Shown here piece after piece: positions 4,264 to 30,747 of a stretch of 64,000 nt of DNA (within the stretch, counting starts at the first letter, position 1; every line of letters starts with the position of its first letter). The stretch spans positions 284-64,283 of the forward strand of contig JALLOH010000005.1 of assembly GCA_027717655.1 (NCBI GenBank). Reading direction: 5' to 3'. The notes beneath the pieces are model-generated. The model searched no databases. It saw nothing but the letters and a program-made list of their open reading frames with translations, and was not told the origin of the DNA. Position numbers and translations under genes: made by a program. The stretch is from Acidobacteriia bacterium AH_259_A11_L15. GTDB taxonomy: Bacteria; Acidobacteriota; Terriglobia; Acidiferrales; 2-02-FULL-67-57.

Positions 4264-4827
4264 TCATGCTTTGGGGGGAATGTCCGGCAGCACCTTGCCG
4301 GTGCGCCAGGCGTAGTGGATGCCGGAGGCTAGGGTGATCGCCACCGTCAGCCCGATCAGCACGTCCTTGGCCCAGACCACCGCCCCGTGCGGCCACACCC
4401 TGGCCAGGACCACCACACCCACGGTCAGCACCTGGGTCACCGTGCTGATCTTGCCGTAAACGCTGGACGCGAACGGCCGCCACCCGGCCCCGATGATGAT
4501 GGCCAAGGCCACGGCTAGGATGAGCACGTCCCGCCCCAGCACCAGGACGCTCACCGTCCAGGGAACGTCGCCCTGGACTGCCAGGATGACGAAGGCGGTC
4601 GAAAGCAGCAACTTGTCGGTGATGGGGTCGAGATAGGCGCCCAGGGGCGTGCGCTGCTTCAGCGCCCGCGCCAGCAGCCCGTCCAAGGCGTCGCTCAAGC
4701 CCGCGGCCAGCAGCACCGCCAATCCCCAGCCATAGCGCTGGTTAAGAACCGCAATGACGAAGAAAGGAATCAGCGCCAGCCGCACCAGCGTGAGCTGGTT
4801 GGCCAGGGTGAAGAACTGCCGGCTCAT
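4264..4827 (-). CDS. pgsA: CDP-alcohol phosphatidyltransferase (PgsA-like)
   Basis: 187-aa multi-TM protein. DALDGLLARALKQRTPLGAYLDPITDKLL matches D-x2-DG-x2-AR-x8-G-x3-D-x3-D. Confidence 0.8.
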   Translation of the reverse strand: MSRQFFTLANQLTLVRLALIPFFVIAVLNQRYGWGLAVLLAAGLSDALDGLLARALKQRTPLGAYLDPITDKLLLSTAFVILAVQGDVPWTVSVLVLGRDVLILAVALAIIIGAGWRPFASSVYGKISTVTQVLTVGVVVLARVWPHGAVVWAKDVLIGLTVAITLASGIHYAWRTGKVLPDIPPKA

Positions 4828-4855
4828 CGGAGGGGCGGCCCGCCGGGGCGGCGGC

Positions 4856-5176
4856 TTAGGGCTCGGCCTCGGTCATCGCGGCCAGGTACTCCAGCAGGCT
4901 GCGACCCACCTGGCGCTCGAAGGTTTGCGACAGCGAGGGGATCGACCCCTGGGGCTCGTCCAGGGCGATGCGCTCCAGCCGCTGCATGGGATAAAAAATC
5001 GTGGCCAGCCCCACCAGGTCTTCGGCGTCCCTCTTCACCTGGCGGACGAAGTCGTCGAAGGAGTTGAGGTCAATCCCGCGCACGGTCACCCCCGCCTGGG
5101 TCAGCGCCACCAACTGGCCCCACACCCGTTCCTTGGGCTCGTGCAAACTGACGACGACAATGGAATTCAACTCCAT
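4856..5176 (-). CDS. Hypothetical protein
   Basis: 106-aa ORF with normal-looking composition, packed between pgsA and scoB on the same strand. No recognisable motif. Confidence 0.5.
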   Translation of the reverse strand: MELNSIVVVSLHEPKERVWGQLVALTQAGVTVRGIDLNSFDDFVRQVKRDAEDLVGLATIFYPMQRLERIALDEPQGSIPSLSQTFERQVGRSLLEYLAAMTEAEP

Positions 5177-5197
5177 CGGCCTGCCTACATTTTCCCC

Positions 5198-5866
5198 CTA
5201 CACCTGCGTTTCCTTCAAGTCCTTTGCCACTTTCAACGTCGGCTCGGTCACTTCCTGGACTTTCTCCGGCGTGGCGCCCGGGGCCACTTCTTTCAGCAGC
5301 AGGCCCGCCCGGGTCACTTCGATCACCGCCAGCTCGGTCACGATCAGGTCCACCACCCCGACGCCGGTCAGGGGCAGCGTACACTGCTTGAGGATTTTGG
5401 GCTTGCCCTTGGCGGTGTGCTCCATGGCGATGATCACCCGCTTGGCCCCGGCCACCAGGTCCATCGCCCCGCCCATCCCCTTGACCATCTTGCCGGGGAT
5501 CATCCAGTTGGCCAGGTTCCCTTTCTCGTCCACCTGCAAGGCGCCCAGGATGGAGAGGTCAATGTGCCCGCCGCGGATCATCCCAAAGGAGTCGGCGCTG
5601 GAAAAGAACGCCGCCCCGGGAATCTCCGTCACTGTCTCTTTGCCGGCGTTGATCAGGTCGGCGTCCTCTTCACCCTGGTAGGGATACGGCCCGATGCCCA
5701 GCAGCCCGTTCTCGGATTGCAGGATTACGTCCATCCCTTTGGGGATGTAGTTCGCCACCAGGGTGGGCAGGCCGATGCCCAGGTTGACGTAGTAGCCGTC
5801 GCGCAGCTCCTGCGCCACCCGCTTGGCAATCCGCTCCCGAATCCCCTCGCCACTCTTCTGTGCCAT
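5198..5866 (-). CDS. scoB: 3-oxoacid CoA-transferase subunit B
   Basis: [17 protein letters not shown] (catalytic Glu motif), GGAMDLV. Confidence 0.9.
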
Positions 5867-6026
5867 CTTTCCCCTCTGTGTTGTCTCTGTGTCCTCTGCT
5901 TGCCCTCAGCGAAGTCGAAGGGCGCCTCTGCGGTGAAAATTCCTTTTCCTCTACTCCTTTGCCTCTTGTGCTTCCTTTGCCCCCTCTATTTCCTGCCTCC
6001 GTGCCTCTCTCCCTGGCTGCCTCCTG
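5867..6026. repeat. 160-bp CT-rich / REP-containing spacer inside the scoA-scoB operon
   Basis: Contains ccctcagcgaagtcgaaggg (5903-5922, REP core) followed by ctcctttgcctcttgtgcttcctttgcc, which closely resembles ctcctttgcttcctctgcttcctctgcc inside tyrA (about 7620-7650). Confidence 0.55.
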
Positions 6027-6728
6027 CTAGGCCGCGCGCTGGCGCGTGGTGCGCCGCTCGATGCGCTTCTCGTAGTCTTTCCCCTGAAAAATGGCATCCA
6101 CGAAGATGCCCGGGGTGTGGACGAAATCCGGGTCGAGCTCCCCCACGTCCACCAGCTCCTCGACTTCGGCGATCACAGTGTCGGCCGCGGTGGCCATCAC
6201 CGGATTAAAGTTCCGCGCCGTCTTTCGGTAGATAAGATTTCCCCACCGGTCCCCCTTCCAGGCCTTGATGAAAGCATACTGAGCCCGCAGCGGCTTCTCC
6301 AGCACGTACATCTTGCCGCCGATCTCCCGCGTCTCCTTGCCTTCGCCCACCGGGGTGCCGTAGCCGGTGGGGGTGAAGAACCCGCCGAGGCCCGCCCCGG
6401 CCGCCCGCATGCGCTCGGCCAGCGTGCCCTGGGGATTCAACTCCACTTCCAGCTCCCCGCTCAGCACCTGCTGCTCGAACAGCTTGTTCTCCCCCACGTA
6501 AGTGGCGATCATCTTTTTCACTTGCTTGGTCTGCAGCAGCAGCCCGATCCCGAAGTCATCCACCCCGGCGTTGTTCGATATGACCGTCAGGTTCTTGACG
6601 CCTTTCCGCCGCACCGCCGCGATCAGGTTCTCCGGGATGCCGCACAGCCCGAAGCCGCCCATCATGATGGTGGCCCCGTCCTGAATCGCCTTGATGGCTT
6701 CCTCCGCGTTCGCCACCCGCTTGTTCAT
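6027..6728 (-). CDS. scoA: 3-oxoacid CoA-transferase subunit A
   Basis: [44 protein letters not shown]. Confidence 0.9.
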
Positions 6729-13788: not shown

Positions 13789-13863
13789 GGCGGTATCGTC
13801 TAGGGGTTAGGACGCCAGATTCTCAATCTGGAAACCCGGGTTCGATTCCCGGTACCGCTACCA
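13789..13863 (+). tRNA. tRNA-Glu (anticodon CUC)
   Basis: Hand-folded cloverleaf. Acceptor GGCGGTA/TACCGCT (G1-U72 wobble), D arm GTCT..GGAC, anticodon stem CCAGA/TCTGG with loop TTCTCAA, T arm CCGGG-TTCGATT-CCCGG, discriminator A and an encoded CCA. Confidence 0.9.
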
Positions 13864-20115: not shown

Positions 20116-21564
<1,449 letters not shown>

Positions 21565-21602
21565 GCTGCCTCCAGGATGAGCGCCTGGCTCCCAAATCAA
21601 CC

Positions 21603-22086: not shown

Positions 22087-22276
22087 CCCGCCGCCGGCCA
22101 GCGCGTCCACTGCTACTCCGCTTCCCGGCTGAGCGCAAGCGTCTTGGGCCGAACGGTGCCCGGCGGGGCCTGGCGGCGGATTTGGACGGCGTCAATGGCT
22201 TCCGGCGCCGAAAGGAGGTAGACCTTCTGGAACCCTTCCCGCTCCAGCGTAGGGCATCGGGCCTCCCGGGTGCGGC

Positions 22277-22531
22277 TTAGTGGACCTCGCGGCGGGTGTA
22301 GGTCTCCGGAGGGAGGACTTTGACGATGTTGGTGGACTGCACGATGTAGACGGGGTTGCCCTGGGGGTCGCGCTCGCCGGTCTTCAGGATGCTGGAGACC
22401 ACCAGCTTGATGCGGACGGTGAAGCCGTCTTCGACCTGATATTCGCTCCAGTCCTCTCGGACGGAGTTGAACTCCATGTCTTCGGCCTCGATGCTGCGTT
22501 CGCCGATGTTGATGCGGGTTTTGCGGGCCAC
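22277..22531 (-). CDS. Small hypothetical protein
   Basis: 84 aa from the GTG at 22531, preceded by AAGGAGG with 5-nt spacing. VARKTRINIGERSIEAEDMEF... has no recognised family. Confidence 0.55.
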   Translation of the reverse strand: MARKTRINIGERSIEAEDMEFNSVREDWSEYQVEDGFTVRIKLVVSSILKTGERDPQGNPVYIVQSTNIVKVLPPETYTRREVH

Positions 22532-22612
22532 AGAAACCTCCTTGGGGCCGCGGTGGGCCCGGGAATGGCACGCCTCGTGCTGAGCTAGTAGGCCGAGGCA
22601 GATTATAGGAGC

Positions 22613-23932
22613 TTGGGGGCGGTGCGCCAAGCCGGTGACCGGTGCGGGGGCAAGACCTTGGAGCCCGGGAGGCCCCTAGAAGTTCGTCGGGTCCCTCGCC
22701 GGGGCCGTTTCCTTCCCTATTTGGCACTGCTCCTGGCTCCCCTGTCCGTGGCCGCCCAATCGGCCCCCGCCCAGCGGGCGGAAGCGATGGAGCGGGCGCG
22801 AGCGCACGTGGAAGCGCAGGAATACGGGGCGGCGCTGCACATCTACCGCGAGTTGGCGGCGGAGAATCCGCGGGACTTCGAGGCGCGCATCTGGGTGGCG
22901 CGGCTGCAGAGCTGGCAGGGAAACTACCGGGAAGCGGAACAAGGCTACCGCCAGGTCTTGCGCGACGCCCCGGGGAACTTCGAAGCCGAGCTGGGTCTGG
23001 TGGACGTCCTGAGCTGGCAGGGCCGCTATGGGGAAGCCGAAGAGCGCTTGCTGGGACTGGAAGCCGAGTATCCGGAGGACACCGAAGTCCTTCTGCGCCG
23101 GGCCCGGCTGCATCGCTGGCGGGGCCGGCGGAAGCAAGCACTCGCCACTTACGAGCGGCTGTTGGCTCTGGAGCCCGGCAACCAGGAAGCGCAGGAAGCC
23201 CTCGCCGCCCTGCGCTCGGAGACCCGCTACCAACTGGCGGCGGGCTACTTCTTCGAGGAATTCGACTTCGCCGGGGAAACCAACGGGCAGTTCGTCGAAC
23301 TGCTCTACCACGACCTCGACCGCGTCTGGCTGCTGGGCCGCTTCCAGTTCCAGAACAAGTTCGACGAGAACAACACCCGCTACACCCTGGGGGGGTCCTA
23401 CCGCTTTTTTCGCCGCACCTGGGTGCGCGCCGAAGCCAGCCTGGCGCCGCCGAACGACCGGGTGATCGCCAACCAGGACTACACCCTCGAAATCACCCAG
23501 GGGCTGCACCCGCGGCTGGCCGCCGGGGGCAGCTATCGCTTCCTGAACTTCCGCGACGCCGACGTGCAGGTGGTGACCGCGCTGGTCAACTGGACGCTGC
23601 GGCGGGACCTGCGGCTGTACGTGCGCTACTCGCCGGCGCGTACTATGTTCGATTCCACCGGCCAGAGCGTCTGGAACCAGAACGGCTTCGCCCGCCTGGA
23701 GTGGGACGCCCACCGCAAGGTCAGTCCCTACGTCTTGTTCGCCGTCGGTTCGGAGAGCTTCGCCGGGCTGACGGCCGAGCAGTTGGGCCGCTTCGCCGCG
23801 CAAACCTGGGGCGTGGGCGCCGAAGTCCGGGTGACCAACTTGCAGGGCTTCCGCGTCGGCTACTATTTCCAGAGCCGCACCCGCAACAACCGCCAGCAGG
23901 GCTTCAGCGTCTCCTACTTCCTGCGGTTCTAA
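22613..23932 (+). CDS. TPR-repeat protein fused to a YaiO-like outer-membrane beta-barrel
   Basis: Signal peptide (LALLLAPLSVAAQ), at least 4 TPR-like repeats (ARLQSWQGNYREAEQGYRQVL...), then alternating beta-strand sequence ending in YFLRF (terminal Phe). Start uncertain (possible TTG at 22658). Confidence 0.7.
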   Translation: MGAVRQAGDRCGGKTLEPGRPLEVRRVPRRGRFLPYLALLLAPLSVAAQSAPAQRAEAMERARAHVEAQEYGAALHIYRELAAENPRDFEARIWVARLQSWQGNYREAEQGYRQVLRDAPGNFEAELGLVDVLSWQGRYGEAEERLLGLEAEYPEDTEVLLRRARLHRWRGRRKQALATYERLLALEPGNQEAQEALAALRSETRYQLAAGYFFEEFDFAGETNGQFVELLYHDLDRVWLLGRFQFQNKFDENNTRYTLGGSYRFFRRTWVRAEASLAPPNDRVIANQDYTLEITQGLHPRLAAGGSYRFLNFRDADVQVVTALVNWTLRRDLRLYVRYSPARTMFDSTGQSVWNQNGFARLEWDAHRKVSPYVLFAVGSESFAGLTAEQLGRFAAQTWGVGAEVRVTNLQGFRVGYYFQSRTRNNRQQGFSVSYFLRF

Positions 23933-24037
23933 CCGGCCGCGGTAGCCCCTTTCAGCGTTTCAAAAACAAATGGTTTTGATCCAACAACTAGCGTACGCGT
24001 ACGTTGATTAGAAAGCCGACCGACCTACGAAGGACGG

Positions 24038-24379
24038 CTACTTGTTCCTGCGAGGGGGCAACCGCAGGGGAACGTCCGGGTTGTTCTTGTTAAAAGCGGC
24101 CACGATTTTGGGGGGGGTGGTCTTCTTCGGATTGTAAGTCACCTTGATGCCGTGCGTCTCGGGGTCCACCCGAGCGTCCTCGACGCCCTCCACCCGCAGC
24201 AAGCCCTGCTCAATGATGCCGTGGCTCGCGGAGCACCCTTCCGGGAGTTCCCCTTTGGCCAATTGCACGATGAGGGTAGCGAAGGGTTCTTCGGACTCCT
24301 TGCTTTTCTCCTGGCCCAGCGCGGGGCTGGGCGAGCCGAGCAAGAGTGCGCTCAATGCTAGTAGACCTAGTTCCCTCAT
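24038..24379 (-). CDS. Secreted small protein with an HMA-like (ferredoxin-fold) domain lacking CxxC
   Basis: Signal peptide, then ATLIVQLAKGELPEGCSASHGIIEQGLLRVEGVEDARVDPETHGIKVTY resembles the heavy-metal-associated fold pattern but has a single Cys plus His. Confidence 0.5.
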   Translation of the reverse strand: MRELGLLALSALLLGSPSPALGQEKSKESEEPFATLIVQLAKGELPEGCSASHGIIEQGLLRVEGVEDARVDPETHGIKVTYNPKKTTPPKIVAAFNKNNPDVPLRLPPRRNK

Positions 24380-24414
24380 GGCCTGTCCTCCTCCGGCTGG
24401 TTCGCTGCCGGAAG

Positions 24415-25290
24415 CTAGAGGGGCATCTTTTCCCCTCGGCGGAGCCGGTCCAGGAACTCCTGCACTCCATACACCGGACGCCCTTTAAGTTCCGAGTGGT
24501 GTTCCAGCCATTTGTGCACTTCCTCTTCGGAACTGAAGAGGTTGTTGATTCCTCACCCGCCACCCAGGAAGACCTTGGTGGTGGCTGGGTCGAGTTCCTT
24601 CACCCGCCCGTTCTCGAACACCAGGTGTATGCGCTCGCCGCTGTACTGCGAGGCATCTTCAACGGTAACTTCCTTGTCATTCCATTTCGCGTTGACCAAC
24701 GCGATGAAGTCCATCGCTCAATAAGTGTCGAGTTTCTTCACCCCCTGCACATTCACCCGGTGGTACATGAAGGTGATTCGCATCCCGCCTTCCCAGTTCA
24801 CGTAGCGAGGCTTCGCCATCCGGTAGCCGACCCCGCCGGCGAGCCCGTCCGGGTGGATAATCCCGAAGCGCTCCAGGGTCGCCAGACCGGCGGTGATTGC
24901 CTCCGGGGACACCTGGACGGCTGGGGCCAGCTCGGCCAACGAAGGTGCCGGACGTTGCTCGCGCTCGGCCGAGCTCAGGTGGCGCGCAATCAGCTTCTCG
25001 GTGGGGGTCAGCGAAACTGTCTCCCAGCCAAAGATGCGAATCACGCGATGGACTTCGGGATGTTCGCGGATGTAGTCGCCCAGGGCGTAGCGGTCTTCCA
25101 AGGTGTAATCGCCGCCGAGGATCTCCATGGCCAGGTCGATGCCGGTCACGGCGGTGTCTTGGCCCCAGTTGGCCACCAAATAGTCGAGCACCTCTTGTTG
25201 CTTGGCGGTGAGCGAGCCGGCCCGGGTAGCCGCCACTACCGCCAGAGCCAACACCACCGTCGCCAGTGTGGCCAGGATTCGTCTGCGCAT
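24415..25290 (-). CDS. MerB-family (alkylmercury-lyase-like) secreted protein with two in-frame UGA codons; candidate selenoprotein
   Basis: ORF 24718-25290 ends in TGA (24720-24718). The same frame stays open through ...DTY-U-AMDFIALVNAKWNDKEVTVEDASQYSGERIHLVFENGRVKELDPATTKVFLGGG-U-GINNLFSSEEEVHKWLEHHSELKGRPVYGVQEFLDRLRRGEKMPL-TAG (stop at 24417-24415). The second TGA is at 24555-24553. U-A-M-D parallels MerB C96-A-L-D99, the second U parallels C159, and NLFSS..W parallels HFFAS..W. Both UGAs are followed by hairpins. Confidence 0.7.
24522..24541 (-). other. Hairpin 11 nt downstream of the second UGA (candidate bacterial SECIS)
   Basis: The RNA reads UGA-GGAAUCAACAA-CCUCUUC-AGUUCC-GAAGAGG: a 7-bp perfect stem with GU in the loop. 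Confidence 0.5.
24691..24717 (-). other. Hairpins immediately downstream of the first UGA (candidate bacterial SECIS)
   Basis: The RNA reads UGA-GCGAUG-GACUU-CAUCGC, overlapping CGCGUU-GGUC-AACGCG. The GGUC apical loop is like the one in the E. coli fdhF SECIS. The loop lies about 20 nt from the UGA. Confidence 0.5.
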
Positions 25291-25298
25291 GGTCCCTC

Positions 25299-25898
25299 CT
25301 ACTCCTTCTGCCAGAGTAGCTTCTCGATGTCCGCTTCGATCTCAGCCCGTCGCTTCGGGTATTGCCCAGTGTACTTCTGGTAGATTTTGCCGTCGCGGGT
25401 GACTAGGAAAGCGGTGGGGAAACCCTCGACCCCGAAGGCCTCTTCAATCTCTTCGTTGCCGACGACAACCGGGTACTCGATTTTGAAATCGTATTTCTCA
25501 ATCTCTTCTTGGATGTCGCTCACCCAGCCCGATTGCACCGTGATGCCGAGGACGGTGAACCCTTGCTGGTGGTAGCGCTGCTGCAACCTGTTCCAGTGAG
25601 GGATGTCTTCCACACAAGGTTTGCACCAGGTGGCCCAGAGGTCGATCAGCACCACCTTGCCGGCTAGCGACTGGGAGGAAAAGCCGCTGCCGTCCAGCAT
25701 CTTAAGCTCAAAGCTCGGCAGGGGCGGCAGCCGCGCCGGTTCGGCGGAGAATAGTCCCTCAGCCGATGCAGCCAGCCCCACAGCTACTAGCACTGAGAGG
25801 GCAGCGAAGAGCGGCTTCGACCGTGTGCAGCCTAGCATCATGCTCTTCATTAGACGTTTGCGTTGTCTATGCGTGAGCGGGGGCGCTTTGTCAAGCAC
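25299..25898 (-). CDS. TlpA/ResA-like periplasmic thiol:disulfide oxidoreductase
   Basis: LIDLWATWCKPCVEDIP (WCxxC thioredoxin motif) with an N-terminal anchor or signal sequence. The start may be the internal Met at 25850. Confidence 0.85.
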   Translation of the reverse strand: MLDKAPPLTHRQRKRLMKSMMLGCTRSKPLFAALSVLVAVGLAASAEGLFSAEPARLPPLPSFELKMLDGSGFSSQSLAGKVVLIDLWATWCKPCVEDIPHWNRLQQRYHQQGFTVLGITVQSGWVSDIQEEIEKYDFKIEYPVVVGNEEIEEAFGVEGFPTAFLVTRDGKIYQKYTGQYPKRRAEIEADIEKLLWQKE

Positions 25899-26256: not shown

Positions 26257-28041
26257 CTATCTTTCCTGGTTCGGGGAGGGCAAAGAGAGAAAGAGGCGGT
26301 CGCCCTCCAGGCGCGTTCTGACCGAGAGGGGCACCCCCGCAGCATCCAAAACCAGTGGTGACGGACTGTTGGGCAAGTGTTCCAGCACAAGAGTTTGTCC
26401 GGGAGGAATTTCTTGCCGCTCCAAGTTCAACACGATGGTCGTGCCCTCGCCGCTCCCTGTCCGCAGCGTGGGTCTCAGCCGGGCACGGTGCCGCCAGAAA
26501 CGGGCCAGACTGCCGACGTCTCCAATCCAGATGTCCTTTCCGCGATGGGCCATGATGAGTCGTCGTTCGGTCTCCAGCTTGTGGGTAACGTCCGTCGGAT
26601 GAATCAGCAAGCACGTTGAAGCACCATTCTCCGCATTGGCTTCTATGATCTCAGCCCAGGTGCGCAAGACTTGCTCTTCCCTCCCCGGGGTCAGAAAGTC
26701 GCGGGAGTCATCCAAGGTAACGGGAACGACCACGATGCGGCTTTGCTCGGCCCCCAATTTTCTTTCACGAAATCCAAAGTAGGGGAAATTCGTCAATACC
26801 CACTGCGCGGAGACGCTGGAATCGTAGGTGTAGCCGGTCTCTTCGAGCACGCGCAGGAGGGCACTCGGATAGCGCAGGTAGCCAGCTCGGAAGCCTGCGG
26901 TCTCTTGACCCAAGTCCCGGTCCAGCAGTTGTTTGCTCACTAGCACTTCGCCGAAGAGGGTGGGGGTGGCGGGCTCATAGCTCGAGGGATCGGCGGGTGC
27001 GGAGCCGACCGGGAATTCGTCGAAGGTCAGGGAGTGGCTGACGGAGTGGGATTCAACAGCAAAGCCCAACTCTTTCACTCGCCGCAGCCAGGCGATGCGT
27101 CCGGGCGTGTAGTAGCCAATGTCGGTTTCATCCCGGAAATACTTGGTGGTAACGAAAAAGGTACTGCGTACGCCGAGCGACGCCTCCATCTGGGCGAAGA
27201 GGAATGAATTGCGAAAGGACTCCCGGGCGTCCACGTCGTGAGAAAGCACCAGAGCCGTCCGGTGCCCTTCGGGAACTGTGTGCACCAGCAGGAAAGGATG
27301 CACGTTGTCTTCATAGAGCCCGCGCAGAATCAAACGGAAGACGTCCCCGGAGGGCTCAAAGGAGTTGATCCAGCGACGGGCGGCCTGGAAGCTGCGCGCC
27401 AGCTGAGGCAGCAGAGTTGTTTCTTTGAATCCTATGCCCAGGGCATAGGCGAGTCCGCGGCCATAGGGATGGACCGTGAAGGCGACGGCGCCGTTCTCAT
27501 ATCGGGCGAGCACTTTCGTGCGCCGGCCAGGAACGTATTCGGTGGACCAGACAGTCTCCGAATACAACGCCGGGTCGCCCAGCGAGACCGTGCGTTCCTG
27601 GGGGCGGTTGAGATAGCGCAAAGCCGGGTCCGCAGCCGGGGCGAAGCGGACGCGGAAGTTCGTGCGGCTGGTCGTGGCCCCCTCCAGCCCGAATAGCGGA
27701 AAGAAGTTGCTCCCTTGCACCTGGGTGGCAAGCAACACGCCGCCCCGCTCCACGTAGGCATAGAGCGCCTCTTGCTCGGCCGGGGTCACTTCGGTGTTGA
27801 ACAGGATTCCGCCAACCAGCACGAGCGGATAGCGCGTGGCTACTTCCACTTCGGCAGTGGTCCGAAACGGGATTCCCAGCAGCTCCAGACAGTTGCGAAC
27901 TGCCAATTGTTCTTGAAGGGCGTCGCGGCTGGAGCCGATCTCCAGGACCGCCACGCCCCAGTCGAAATCTGCGGGAGCGGCATGGAGACCGGAGACCCCC
28001 AGAAACAGCCAGACGAAAATAGCCGCGAGCTTGCGTGTCAT
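26257..28041 (-). CDS. Secreted polysaccharide deacetylase (CE4/NodB-like) with an N-terminal accessory domain
   Basis: Start at MTRKLAAIFVWLF (signal peptide) with an ATGA overlap on the upstream gene. LSHDVDA...ESHSVSH...LIHP follows the NodB motif order. Confidence 0.7.
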   Translation of the reverse strand: MTRKLAAIFVWLFLGVSGLHAAPADFDWGVAVLEIGSSRDALQEQLAVRNCLELLGIPFRTTAEVEVATRYPLVLVGGILFNTEVTPAEQEALYAYVERGGVLLATQVQGSNFFPLFGLEGATTSRTNFRVRFAPAADPALRYLNRPQERTVSLGDPALYSETVWSTEYVPGRRTKVLARYENGAVAFTVHPYGRGLAYALGIGFKETTLLPQLARSFQAARRWINSFEPSGDVFRLILRGLYEDNVHPFLLVHTVPEGHRTALVLSHDVDARESFRNSFLFAQMEASLGVRSTFFVTTKYFRDETDIGYYTPGRIAWLRRVKELGFAVESHSVSHSLTFDEFPVGSAPADPSSYEPATPTLFGEVLVSKQLLDRDLGQETAGFRAGYLRYPSALLRVLEETGYTYDSSVSAQWVLTNFPYFGFRERKLGAEQSRIVVVPVTLDDSRDFLTPGREEQVLRTWAEIIEANAENGASTCLLIHPTDVTHKLETERRLIMAHRGKDIWIGDVGSLARFWRHRARLRPTLRTGSGEGTTIVLNLERQEIPPGQTLVLEHLPNSPSPLVLDAAGVPLSVRTRLEGDRLFLSLPSPNQER

Positions 28042-29384
28042 CGCCAAAATTGCTCTGCCAGCGGGTTGCCCTTCCACGCCTCCGTCACCAAGACGAACCA
28101 GGCGGAAGCGGCCACGCTGGGCACATCCGCCATCTCGTACGGGACGGCCCGCGACGCGTACCGCAAGCCGCTGCCCTCTACCTGAAGCGGCTGCAGCCCG
28201 GCCAGCACTTCCCGCGCCCGCTCCCGGTCTCGCCCTCGCAGATAGACCAAGGCCACGCCCGCGGTTCCTTCCGACCAGACCAGCGGGAATTGGCGCCACT
28301 GCTTGCGGGAGTCCTCGGGGAAAAAGAAGCGGCCCACCGCCGGTTGCTTGTAGATGGGGTGGTCGAAGTAAGGCCGGTAGCCCACTGCCAAGCCGTCGTG
28401 TGCAGGGTAATAGCGCTCAAGGGCCCGCAGAGCCTGCTCCGCCTTTTCCCGTTCGCCGACGGCCAGCAGGAACAACACACCCCAGGAGGCGCAGTCGAGA
28501 GCCTTGACCGGATCCGGCGCGCCCCAGGGACGGAAGCCTCGATTGAACTGGCCCAGCTCTTCATTCCAGGCGCTTCGCAAGAGCCCCGCGCGAAGGCGGT
28601 CGGCCGCCTCACTCCAACGGGTGTCCTCCGTCAAGGCAGCCAGTTGGCGTAGAAAGAACCAAACGCTGATGTTGTTTTCCGTGCTAATCCCCAGGGCAGG
28701 CTTATCCTCGTATAGTTCGATCACGTCGTTGGTTTCAGGTTGATAGGCAAGTTCAATCTCGCCCCGGCCCAGCCGCACCAGTCCATCGCGCGGGTCGCCC
28801 GGGTCGTCGACTTGAAGGGAAAGAAGATAGTCACCCAAACGGGTAGCTGTCGCTCGAAAGAAAGCTTGCTCACGGGCGCAACCGCGGTCGTTGGCTGAAC
28901 ACGGCGGCGCGTGGGATAAGTAGAAGGTGAAAGCGTACCCGACCCACCCCAGGGCGCCCGCGCGAACCAGGGCACTTTCGTGATACTTCTCGTCGGGCCA
29001 GGTGTTGGCGGTGTTGTAGCTGAACCACAGGCTCCCATCGGCTCGTTGCAGCCGCGCCAGCGCGTGCAAAGTGAAGGCAGCGGCGTCGGTCTCTCCGGTG
29101 ATCACGAACACGAGCGCCGCGAGAGCATTGTCATAGGTGGCGGAGCGGTGATAGCCCTGGGGGAAAGCCTCAGGTGCGATGTCGTAGCTGACCACTAGGC
29201 GCCGGCGGGAAGGCGCCGGGGCCGGCACAATGGCATTGGGGGTCACCTGCCCGCGCAACCACTCCAAGTTGGTGGCGCCCCAGGGGCGGAACTCTTCCGG
29301 CGGGGAGGCTCCGGGGAAGCTTCCCGGCGGTTGGGCCAGCAGCAGGCCCACCGCCAGAACTCGGACGAGGATGCGCCGCGGCAC
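28038..29384 (-). CDS. Secreted hypothetical protein, possibly an (alpha/alpha)6-barrel glycoside-hydrolase-like protein
   Basis: 448 aa with a signal peptide, Trp/Tyr-rich helical repeats (YDNALAALVF, GALGWVGYAF, ENNISVWFF, CASWGVLFLL). The fold assignment is a guess. Confidence 0.4.
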   Translation of the reverse strand: MPRRILVRVLAVGLLLAQPPGSFPGASPPEEFRPWGATNLEWLRGQVTPNAIVPAPAPSRRRLVVSYDIAPEAFPQGYHRSATYDNALAALVFVITGETDAAAFTLHALARLQRADGSLWFSYNTANTWPDEKYHESALVRAGALGWVGYAFTFYLSHAPPCSANDRGCAREQAFFRATATRLGDYLLSLQVDDPGDPRDGLVRLGRGEIELAYQPETNDVIELYEDKPALGISTENNISVWFFLRQLAALTEDTRWSEAADRLRAGLLRSAWNEELGQFNRGFRPWGAPDPVKALDCASWGVLFLLAVGEREKAEQALRALERYYPAHDGLAVGYRPYFDHPIYKQPAVGRFFFPEDSRKQWRQFPLVWSEGTAGVALVYLRGRDRERAREVLAGLQPLQVEGSGLRYASRAVPYEMADVPSVAASAWFVLVTEAWKGNPLAEQFWR

Positions 29385-29445: not shown

Positions 29446-30747
29446 CTACCGAGAGTGGGGCGGGCCTGCGGTGCGAGCCGTGATTATAGCCAGCAAGGCG
29501 ACGAAGAGCAAGGCGTTGGCGGGGATGCGCAGGGGGAAGTCCACCAGGCTGTGGAGCAGGACCAGCCCGCAACCGGTGAGCGCCGCCACCACGTAGCGGC
29601 GCTGGGGCCCGTGGGGTGAGAGCCGCAGCTGCTCGGCTGCCGTCCGCGCCAGCGTGACCAGGAACCACAGCGCCAGGGCCGCGCCCACCAGGCCGGTCTC
29701 GGCCAACCATTGCAGGTAGTCGTTGTGGGCCTGGTGCCACTCCAGGCGGGAGTAGAAGCTGCGGTAGGCGTCCGAGATTTCGCCGTAGGTCTCCAGCCCC
29801 GACCCCACCCAGAGGTGGTCGCGAATCATCGCCAGAGTGTCCTGCCAGATTTGCCAGCGGTACTCATCGACGGCCTGCGGCCGGCTGAACAACTCACCCA
29901 GGGTCTGCCAGCGGGAGAGCAGCGTGCCGGTATCGAGCGCCAGGGTGAGGCCGACCGCCACCACCACCACCGCCAAGCCCACCGCCAGCGACCAGCGCCG
30001 GGAACGGCGGCCGCTGCGGCTCAGCAACCAGTAGAGAGGAAAGGCCAGGACGAACAGGATCAAGCCCGCGCGGGAGAGCGACAGCAGCACGGAAACGCCC
30101 AGCGCCAGCACTGCCAGACCCCAAAAGACCTGCGGCTCGAGCCGCCGCCGCCACTGGGCGAACTTGACCCAGGCCAGGGGGAGCAGCATCAGCGCCCAGG
30201 CGGCGTAGTGGTTGCGGTTGATGAAGGGCCCGAAGGGCGAGCTGCCCTCGGGGGCCTGCCAGAACCAGTAGATTTTCCCCTCGAAGCGCAACCCTTGCAG
30301 AATGGCGAACACGGCCAGGGCGAAGGCGAAGACCAGCAACCCGGTGAGGAAGCGCTCCAAGCGGCCCGGGCGGGCCAACTGGTTGTAGAGAAGGAAGAAG
30401 AAGCCGCCCACGGCCAGCAGCTCCCAGACTTGCTCCCGGGTGGCGGGCGGATAGACCGAGAGGGAGGCGAAAGCCTGGAGGGCGACGAAGAGGAAGATGG
30501 CCAGCATGGGATAGAACAAGGCCGGCACGCGGAAGCTGAGCTGGCCGCGCCAGACCGCGGCCAGCCACCACACCCCCAGCAGGCCCAGCACGGCCAGCTC
30601 CATCCCGGCCCGAGCCCAAGCCGGCGTGGCCCCGAAGGTGAGGGCGGCGAAGGCGAGCACTAGGCCGGCGCCGGGCAATAGGAGCAGCTCCAGGCGCTGC
30701 GGGACCCCGGCCGGCAGCCGGGCGCTCCTTCGGGGAGCCGGGCTCAC
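29446..30747 (-). CDS. O-antigen ligase / Wzy-like polymerase family membrane protein
   Basis: About 11 TM segments. NRNHYAAWALMLLPLA...LSLSRAGLILFVL is the Wzy_C signature region. Confidence 0.75.
   Translation of the reverse strand: MSPAPRRSARLPAGVPQRLELLLLPGAGLVLAFAALTFGATPAWARAGMELAVLGLLGVWWLAAVWRGQLSFRVPALFYPMLAIFLFVALQAFASLSVYPPATREQVWELLAVGGFFFLLYNQLARPGRLERFLTGLLVFAFALAVFAILQGLRFEGKIYWFWQAPEGSSPFGPFINRNHYAAWALMLLPLAWVKFAQWRRRLEPQVFWGLAVLALGVSVLLSLSRAGLILFVLAFPLYWLLSRSGRRSRRWSLAVGLAVVVVAVGLTLALDTGTLLSRWQTLGELFSRPQAVDEYRWQIWQDTLAMIRDHLWVGSGLETYGEISDAYRSFYSRLEWHQAHNDYLQWLAETGLVGAALALWFLVTLARTAAEQLRLSPHGPQRRYVVAALTGCGLVLLHSLVDFPLRIPANALLFVALLAIITARTAGPPHSR

Follow-up and report, generated by a model that had tools for sequence, protein, structure and literature searches.

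In the DNA stretch analysed here (the window, 64 kb of the 65-kb contig JALLOH010000005.1 of Acidobacteriia bacterium AH_259_A11_L15), a gene of the MerB superfamily almost certainly encodes a genuine MerB-like selenoprotein with two selenocysteine (Sec) residues, as judged from comparison with related sequences. The gene lies on the minus strand at 24415..25290 and consists of 291 codons followed by a TAG stop codon. Sec is predicted at codon 191 (UGA-1, 24718..24720) and at codon 246 (UGA-2, 24553..24555), positions that are equivalent to Cys96 and Cys159 of MerB, respectively. Both of these cysteines as well as Asp99 are essential and strictly conserved in MerB (PMC8261052).

Translation starts at the ATG at 25290-25288, which has a GGAGGG Shine-Dalgarno sequence immediately upstream. 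The original prediction was that an open reading frame (ORF) of 190 amino acids runs on through two in-frame TGAs to the TAG at 24417-24415, and the sequence agrees with this: the read-through translation is ...DTY-U-AMDFIALVNA...FLGGG-U-GINNLFSSEEEVHKWLEHH..., with a U-U spacing of 55. The GenBank annotation covers only the 190-residue fragment (MYX77_01755, P0001), which is a 100% match to the window, and a contig search for this product of the window gave no contigs encoding it. In the first database search, all 58 homologues were 172-203 residues long and corresponded to the N-terminal 55-65% of the query, at identities down to 47%, and the gene callers had set the same end point for every one of them. 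MYX77_01755 and 57 relatives from this search, plus more among the 120 wider relatives described below, need to be extended through two UGAs. An ORF of 345 residues on the opposite strand (24346-25383, plus strand) overlaps the selenoprotein gene completely; most likely, this is an antisense shadow ORF and not a gene, since such ORFs are expected in DNA of 65% GC. A scan of the window's ORFs with high GC content at third codon positions (GC3) for a second TGA-split selenoprotein gave only patterns that are expected from adjacent same-frame genes.

Comparative data were obtained from the DNA of six genomic loci (two Bryobacterales, Terriglobales, Candidatus Angelobacter, Candidatus Sulfotelmatobacter and a Nitrospirales metagenome-assembled genome) and of 55 metagenomic loci, mostly from soil, all of which came out of a single scan, so that the family is common in soil metagenomes. 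The main comparison set comprised 45 loci that reach the true stop (24415..24417, minus strand) and the window, which together are 33 distinct sequences from Acidobacteriota and a Nitrospirales bin. Both sites are TGA in all 45 loci and in the window, hence in 33/33 distinct sequences, and neither TGC nor TGT occurs at either site within this clade. The frame closes 43-49 codons after UGA-2, and conservation stops at the TAG in all relatives. The flanks are near-invariant, with [YF]-U-A-[ILM]-D-[FY] at site 1 and G-G-G-U-G-[IV]-N-N-L-F-S-S at site 2. Selection past each TGA, which had been suggested as a check, was measured as the ratio of nonsynonymous to synonymous substitution (dN/dS; Nei-Gojobori method, median over sequence pairs among the 33 distinct sequences). 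It is 0.134 between the two UGAs and 0.159 past UGA-2, compared to 0.154 in the annotated N-terminal part, and the purifying selection thus continues to the end of the frame.

Could the gene nevertheless be a decaying pseudogene, or its TGAs sequencing errors, with the 190-residue product being all that is made? GenBank and all gene callers give only that fragment, and one related locus (L041, ~560-900) has a frameshift after site 1, with conservation gone about 50 codons downstream, which is due either to a sequencing error or to a real pseudogene. However, the same double TGA recurs in 45 independent loci that span two phyla and several orders, dN/dS is 0.13-0.16 downstream, conserved hairpins follow the UGAs, relatives with cysteines exist, and a conserved C-terminus closes the frame. 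The assertion that decay alone would hardly produce such a pattern is well borne out, and these comparative data effectively refute the pseudogene explanation.

The relatives with cysteines were found in an exhaustive HMMER search, in which a profile of the N-terminal family region was run against 1.84 billion representatives, resulting in 120 relatives. Eleven of these are full-length proteins with Cys at both columns (C,C), such as P0098 with WCVADF ... GGGCAADNFF; in about 15, site 1 is Cys and the sequence stops after ...GGG, at site 2 (C,U); some 25-30 end at site 1, and a few divergent members show S/G, or E instead of D. P0098 can be aligned with the window protein over the whole length (27% identity, E = 2e-34), and both U are matched by Cys. 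The search for Cys-containing relatives that the original prediction had called for therefore turned up both C,C and C,U forms, with the cysteines exactly at the U columns. At the DNA level, the C,U members L066 and L068 were confirmed to have TGA at site 2, and the distant U,U members L067, L070 and L071 to have it at both sites, with the same hairpins after each. Conserved in-frame UGAs, selection downstream of them, Cys homologues and a hairpin after each UGA, which are the general hallmarks of selenoprotein genes, are thus all found in this family. U,U, C,U and C,C forms constitute a natural series on one scaffold, with which the part played by selenium in Hg-C cleavage and in metal hand-off can be tested.

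As to the hairpins, two overlapping ones had been proposed after UGA-1, and only one of them stands. The conserved hairpin (SECIS-1, for selenocysteine insertion sequence; 24687..24704, minus strand) has a stem of 6-7 bp, (U)CGCGUU/AACGCG(A), and a GGUC loop. Its core CGCGUU-GGUC-AACGCG at 24703-24688 is separated from UGA-1 by a 14-nt spacer, and the loop begins at UGA-1 +20 nt. Among 19-20 distinct sequences, 100% of the cells of the stem are paired and four of the six pairs co-vary, with a covariation score of 0.69-0.72 versus 0.30 in shuffles, none of 500 shuffles reaching it, and registers that are shifted by 1-3 nt are only 14-67% paired. The stem occurs in four versions (CGCGUU/AACGCG, GCUGCU/AGCRGC, GCUGUU/AACAGC and GUUGCU/AGCAAC), which go along with amino-acid changes (ALVNA to LLVSG/S), while the GGUC loop remains constant and the Val codon is GUC in 33/33 sequences. 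The other proposed hairpin, GCGAUG/CAUCGC directly after UGA-1, can be formed in the window but was rejected, as it is only 58.8% paired across the family, which equals the shuffles, and it competes with the conserved hairpin.

After UGA-2, the proposed hairpin CCUCUUC-AGUUCC-GAAGAGG is present as described (SECIS-2; 24522..24541, minus strand), with a stem of 7 bp, an 11-nt spacer and a loop that begins at UGA-2 +18 nt. The stem is paired in 99.4% of cells, and the loop is AGUUCN in the clade, with a free last position, and GGUC in distant relatives. The synonymous sites of SECIS-2 are frozen (Leu CTC 33/33, Ser AGT 31/31, Glu GAA 27/27 and Glu GAG 33/33), and the relative codon entropy is 0.24 at SECIS-2 compared to 0.59-0.66 in the remaining gene. 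Pairing and covariation at the first site, and pairing and frozen codons at the second, show that, by all comparative indications, each UGA has an in-frame bacterial SECIS hairpin of its own that directs the recoding. A weak Rfam match to Prion_pknot, on the opposite strand, was discarded as chance.

Recoding could in principle also insert something other than Sec, namely Cys by a selC*-type tRNA(Cys) together with SelB, or an amino acid by near-cognate read-through, and for some bacteria, Acidobacteria among them, there are reports of such tRNAs and allo-tRNAs (PMC7609411). We regard this as very improbable. If Cys were inserted, TGC or TGT should be interchangeable with TGA within the clade, but TGA is found in 33/33 sequences at both sites; moreover, GGUC is the classic SelB-binding SECIS loop, and TGA is the commonest normal stop codon here (16 of 27 long high-GC3 ORFs of the window and 28 of 46 genes of the family). 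As TGA is the commonest ordinary stop, the genetic code is the standard one and the recoding must be local and site-specific. At the phylum level, there is evidence that Acidobacteria have selenoproteins (PMC1794560).

The assignment of the protein to the MerB family was made with U written as C for the domain scoring. The catalytic domain (residues 176-271; 24478..24765, minus strand) matches Pfam PF03243 with 43.8 bits against a gathering cutoff of 27. Among PDB sequences, the sole real match was MerB2 (5c17), with E = 2.8e-4 for the single sequence and 1.3e-07 for a family profile of ten members, and in the alignment the two U columns coincide with the Cys of WCAIS and the Cys of GGTC. A hhalign comparison with R831b MerB, using a sequence whose cysteines count out to the published 96/117/159/160, equates U191 with Cys96, Asp194 with Asp99 and U246 with Cys159 (E = 1.8e-4), and aligns the window protein from residue 77 onward, including the winged helix-turn-helix (wHTH), with MerB from residue 38 onward. 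Asp194 (GAC, 24709..24711, minus strand), at position +3 from the first Sec, is invariant in the clade alignment and corresponds to the proton donor of MerB. The FxS..W motif near the C-terminus is present as well. The original prediction is thereby confirmed as to the MerB family, the placement of both UGAs on catalytic Cys columns, the retained Asp and the FF/LF-S-S...W tail.

N-terminal of the catalytic domain, the wHTH (residues 95-146; 24853..25008, minus strand; Pfam LexA_DNA_bind, 24.8 bits) corresponds to the N-terminal helix-turn-helix (HTH) domain of MerB, but since the protein is presumably exported, DNA binding is not expected. It is preceded by a family-specific helical domain (residues 27-95; 25006..25212, minus strand) that has no counterpart in canonical MerB and no Pfam match; its invariant residues in the family alignment include W42, D66, R67, H81, R85, F87, G88 and W89, and in an AlphaFold2 (AF2) model of the relative P0098, helices are found at 38-102. 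This model of the C,C form, computed from a 23-sequence family alignment, has a mean predicted local distance difference test (pLDDT) score of 90.1 and a predicted template modelling (pTM) score of 0.83. In a Foldseek search with this model, MerB entries take all of the first 11 ranks among the PDB matches (E 2.6e-08 to 8e-06), whereas lower ranks match only the wHTH. The distant relatives P0098, P0103, P0120, P0142, P0157, L067 and L070 have a C-x-H-C motif (e.g. DSCAHC) where the window clade has DASQYS. As this region aligns with Cys117 of MerB, the window clade has lost these cysteines.

At the very N-terminus, residues 1 to ~25 (MRRRILATLATVVLALAVVAATRAG; 25216..25290, minus strand) read as a signal peptide, as had been predicted, and a hydrophobic, signal-like N-terminus is kept across the family alignments. 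Both partner proteins described below also have signal peptides. Export by the twin-arginine translocation (Tat) pathway was considered, as the window protein starts with MRRRIL, but L001 has MRNLCAL; the twin arginine is not conserved in relatives, and therefore no claim for Tat is made.

The two partners are encoded directly next to the MerB-like gene. Upstream, a gene for a TlpA/ResA-like thioredoxin-fold protein, a putatively exported thiol:disulfide oxidoreductase with the motif WATWCKPC (25299..25898, minus strand), ends 8 nt before the MerB-like gene; its likely start is an ATG at 25850 (MKSMM...), followed by a hydrophobic signal or anchor segment. It matches Pfam Redoxin (63.9 bits) and AhpC-TSA (57.5 bits) as well as the NCBIfam models for the ResA subfamily (84 bits) and TlpA (57 bits). 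Such a gene is located directly upstream in essentially every locus of sufficient length, with an invariant WATWCxPC and, in some clades, a lipobox, and the C,C form P0098 likewise has a Redoxin gene upstream. In P0070 (337 residues), a TlpA-like thioredoxin-fold domain (FWAVWCPPC) is naturally fused to the MerB-like protein, which ends at site 1 (...FDVW|), and this fusion, as a Rosetta-stone case, supports the idea that the two genes are functionally linked.

Downstream, after 35 nt, begins a gene for a secreted, MerP-like protein of 113 residues with the fold of heavy-metal-associated (HMA) domains (24038..24379, minus strand; Pfam HMA, 30.1 bits). Its only conserved Cys lies in GCSxT, which stands where other HMA proteins have GMTCxxC, and it has weak NCBIfam matches to MerP and to the UxxU metal-binding (seleno)protein. 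The HMA gene is found directly downstream in most clades. In a Nitrospirales-type clade (L019, 5852-6586, and likewise L002), the HMA protein has a second HMA domain with a canonical GMTCGGC after the single-Cys domain. In Bryobacterales (L062, 10893-11420; L063, 10895-11422), the HMA gene is replaced by that of a conserved, hydrophobic 175-residue protein with the Cys-rich motifs LLCCYG, PGCEMR and HHCPG and no Pfam or NCBIfam match, which may be a membrane metal-handling partner. The locus of the C,U member L068 has an ArsR-type regulator and a two-component system (1-2275) upstream of its HMA and Redoxin genes, and near that member a stand-alone protein of 96 residues is encoded (5461-5751, minus strand) that matches PF12324, the HTH domain of alkylmercury lyases. 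From gene order and predicted signals, the TlpA/ResA-like, MerB-like and HMA genes form a conserved cassette of putatively exported proteins.

How could such a cassette work? We consider it probable that the window gene encodes a functional, exported MerB-superfamily protein which combines two Sec residues with the Asp. Its proposed action is as follows. In the periplasm, the selenolates of Sec191 and Sec246, together with Asp194, would bind an organomercurial or some comparable soft organometal cation. Asp194 would then protonate the carbon ligand as in MerB, leaving Hg(II) held between two selenium atoms. The TlpA-like partner would keep the Sec pair reduced, or return it to the reduced state, in the oxidising periplasm, in analogy to TlpA and ScoI, and the HMA protein would take over the metal and pass it to MerT or MerTP and a cytoplasmic reductase, where these are present. 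The lyase mechanism is derived from MerB, where Hg is bound by two chalcogenolate ligands and the leaving carbanion receives its proton from Asp99. We judge the chances that the window protein is a lyase acting on organomercurials to be close to even.

Tentatively, it is even possible that the cassette constitutes the first extracytoplasmic organomercurial lyase system, with a periplasmic enzyme that uses two Sec and an Asp, a TlpA-like reductase and a single-Cys HMA acceptor, widespread in soil Acidobacteriota. If so, it may explain part of the methylmercury demethylation in soils that goes beyond canonical merB, and it would be a natural case of selenium-accelerated Hg-C cleavage. For Acidobacteriota, a large census of mer genes lists MerA and no MerB (PMC8261052). 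Surveys of methylmercury degradation that use merB as marker would miss the family, because databases hold only the 190-residue N-terminal fragment.

Several results speak against the interpretation that has been developed so far. With respect to Sec insertion, no tRNA-Sec gene was found in the 64-kb window or in 30 related loci, which are small samples and thus uninformative; SECIS-2 shows no covariation among the family sequences; and Rfam, whose covariance models were searched as had been suggested, gave no SECIS match to either hairpin at gathering or permissive threshold. The hairpins had also been called stable, but their folding energies alone are unremarkable (z = -1.4 for hairpin 1 and -0.7 for hairpin 2, range -1.4 to 0.0). 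As the energies are not significant, they were not used as evidence, and the case for the hairpins is a comparative one. With respect to MerB, the homology is remote, as the hhalign probability versus R831b MerB is only 49%, and the NCBIfam MerB models are far from reaching their cutoffs (29.2 bits versus 200 for NF033555, 24.6 versus 193 for NF009710). Moreover, the P0098 model superimposes on MerB with template modelling (TM) scores of only 0.42-0.50 on target length and a root-mean-square deviation of ~14 A, which suggests that the domain arrangement of P0098, as modelled, differs from that of MerB. With respect to lyase activity, turnover is a chemical problem, because the product Hg(Sec)2 would be bound extremely tightly, and in the window, as in three of the four long contigs that were annotated, the cassette has no mer genes beside it. 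The difficult release of the product from Se-Hg-Se, together with the lack of adjoining mer genes at most cassettes, makes it necessary to take rivals seriously in which the protein is a binder or chaperone, or acts on another substrate.

What speaks for a binder? In such a case, the protein would be a real, exported two-Sec protein without lyase activity that serves as periplasmic high-affinity binder or chaperone for Hg(II), methylmercury or another soft metal (Cu, Ag, Cd), and its interplay with the TlpA-like reductase and the HMA protein would be analogous to the handling of copper by TlpA, ScoI and CoxB. The partners, a periplasmic reductase and a protein of metallochaperone fold, fit well to this idea, and a Se-Hg-Se product that is hard to release suits sequestration. 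There is also a precedent within the fold, as MerB with Ser at the Asp99 position (MerB2, D99S; 5c17, 5c0t) is known as a metal binder, as the PDB titles indicate. Two loci encode a separate protein of the MerB family that could do the lyase job. In L011, a CsoR-family repressor (4504-4863), a canonical, cytoplasmic Cys/Cys MerB (4876-5574; PF03243 112 bits, NF009710 190 bits) and a MerTP fusion (5529-6197) are located directly downstream of the U,U gene, and in L070 a further MerB-family gene adjoins. The ordinary MerB beside its double-Sec relative in L011 suggests that the two have non-redundant roles. L016 has a CopZ-type metallochaperone, which would likewise agree with a binder, and a MerR-family regulator near the cassette. 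On the other hand, the Asp at +3 is invariant in the clade, and in MerB this residue is the proton donor, whose loss turns the protein into a Cu binder; the upkeep of two costly Sec residues together with this Asp points to catalysis. We therefore see the binder as a rather unlikely alternative, albeit one that deserves attention.

Another alternative is a catalytic, MerB-like lyase or oxidoreductase with a different substrate, which could be an organotin, organolead or organoarsenic species or a Se/Te compound, or a diselenide redox enzyme. This would be in line with the lack of adjoining mer genes at most cassettes, that of the window included, with an HMA partner that is devoid of the canonical Hg/Cu-binding CxxC, and with the fact that these soils are not known as Hg-rich; the same caveat has been given for SaoL, a MerB-like selenoprotein to which we return below (Haft and Gwadz 2022, bioRxiv 10.1101/2022.07.06.499078). 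But where metal genes do adjoin, they are of the mercury type (MerTP, MerB, MerR): besides L011, L016 and L070, this is the case in L009, where MerTP is accompanied by a CsoR-family repressor and by a flavoprotein disulfide reductase that is cut by the contig end, and in L062, with MerR and MerT-HMA near the cassette. Otherwise, the wider gene surroundings differ from locus to locus. Furthermore, Hg-C protonolysis is the only characterised chemistry of this fold, and a different substrate thus appears improbable.

In the window itself, the genes around the cassette are ordinary housekeeping or envelope genes, and no mer, sel or metal-resistance genes flank it there. The neighbours encode SufB/D (20116-21600, minus strand), a polysaccharide deacetylase-domain protein (26257-28299, minus strand), an O-antigen ligase-like protein (29446-30747, minus strand) and tRNA-Glu(CUC) (13789-13863, plus strand). 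The interval that separates sufB from the HMA gene (22113-23979) contains long, overlapping ORFs of 342, 375 and 445 residues, located on both strands, which have neither a Pfam match nor a counterpart in any related locus, and they were not regarded as members of the cassette.

How does the family relate to known systems? A MerB-like selenoprotein as such is already known: the original prediction held that MerB was outside the established selenoprotein families, but SaoL (NCBIfam NF040728) has been described as MerB-like organometallic lyase selenoprotein (Haft and Gwadz 2022, bioRxiv 10.1101/2022.07.06.499078), and it is the only MerB-type entry in the selenoproteome reviews of 2022 and 2026, with one Sec in a CU motif (PMC9312934, PMC13188914). 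SaoL and the window family have in common the PF03243 domain, Sec at the site equivalent to Cys159, the retained Asp, the misannotation as an ORF that ends at the TGA, and a proposed action on organometallic compounds. However, SaoL is a cytosolic protein of ~213 residues whose only Sec is part of a CU dipeptide and which has kept Cys in the place of Cys96; it is restricted to strict anaerobes (Clostridioides, Brachyspira, Syntrophobacter) and encoded within a nine-gene SAO locus (SaoB/P/X/T/C/E and others). The window family, in contrast, has two Sec (Y-U-A..D and GGG-U-G) and no CU, and its proteins carry an additional domain at the N-terminus besides the signal peptide. Its hosts are soil Acidobacteriota and Nitrospirales, and its genes have TlpA-like and HMA neighbours and no ABC transporter genes. 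With NF040728, the window protein scores 18 bits versus a cutoff of 140, and the family departs from SaoL in every criterion tested. In the literature we found no report of a MerB relative that has an export signal, two Sec residues or a Sec in the place of Cys96, and no model of NCBIfam (June 2026 release) covers a double-Sec MerB-like family. What is new is thus the double-Sec, exported MerB-like family. It is rare for a selenoprotein to have Sec at both of its catalytic ligand positions.

With canonical MerB (EC 4.99.1.2; R831b 3F0O/3F0P, 1S6L; MerB2 5C17), the family shares the HTH and the catalytic core, the active-site columns and the FxS..W tail. It differs in that Sec, a ligand of analogous chemistry, replaces both Cys in all 33 sequences, in that a signal peptide would direct it to export whereas MerB is cytoplasmic, and in its extra helical domain of ~70 residues. 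The U-U spacing is 55-58 in comparison to 63 in MerB, the Cys117 position is lost in the window clade (SQYS), and there is usually no merA partner. As to the other cassette members, Sec is known in the same protein classes from the NCBIfam models NF041115 (UxxU), NF045683 (MerT/CopZ fusion-like) and NF041054 (ResA-like WAxxUGC), and the partners show weak matches to selenoprotein models of these types. But the partners in the window are Cys forms, with WCxPC and a single-Cys HMA domain, respectively, and it is the MerB-like component that contains the Sec.

The hairpins resemble SECIS elements of the fdhF type, as they lie within the coding sequence just 3' of the UGA with a GGUC loop some 18-20 nt past it; the fdhF SECIS of E. 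coli likewise has GGUC, the loop of SECIS-1, at its apex. The window gene differs from this type by having two putative elements in one short gene, and by the AGUUCN loop of SECIS-2 in the clade. For the cassette as a whole, the closest analogy may be the TlpA-ScoI-CoxB system, which matures the periplasmic copper site in Bradyrhizobium. In both cases, an exported TlpA-type reductase would be combined with a periplasmic metal-binding protein whose ligand pair is kept reduced. The systems are analogous only, as the client in the window would be a diselenol protein of the MerB fold and not the thiol pair of Sco or CuA.

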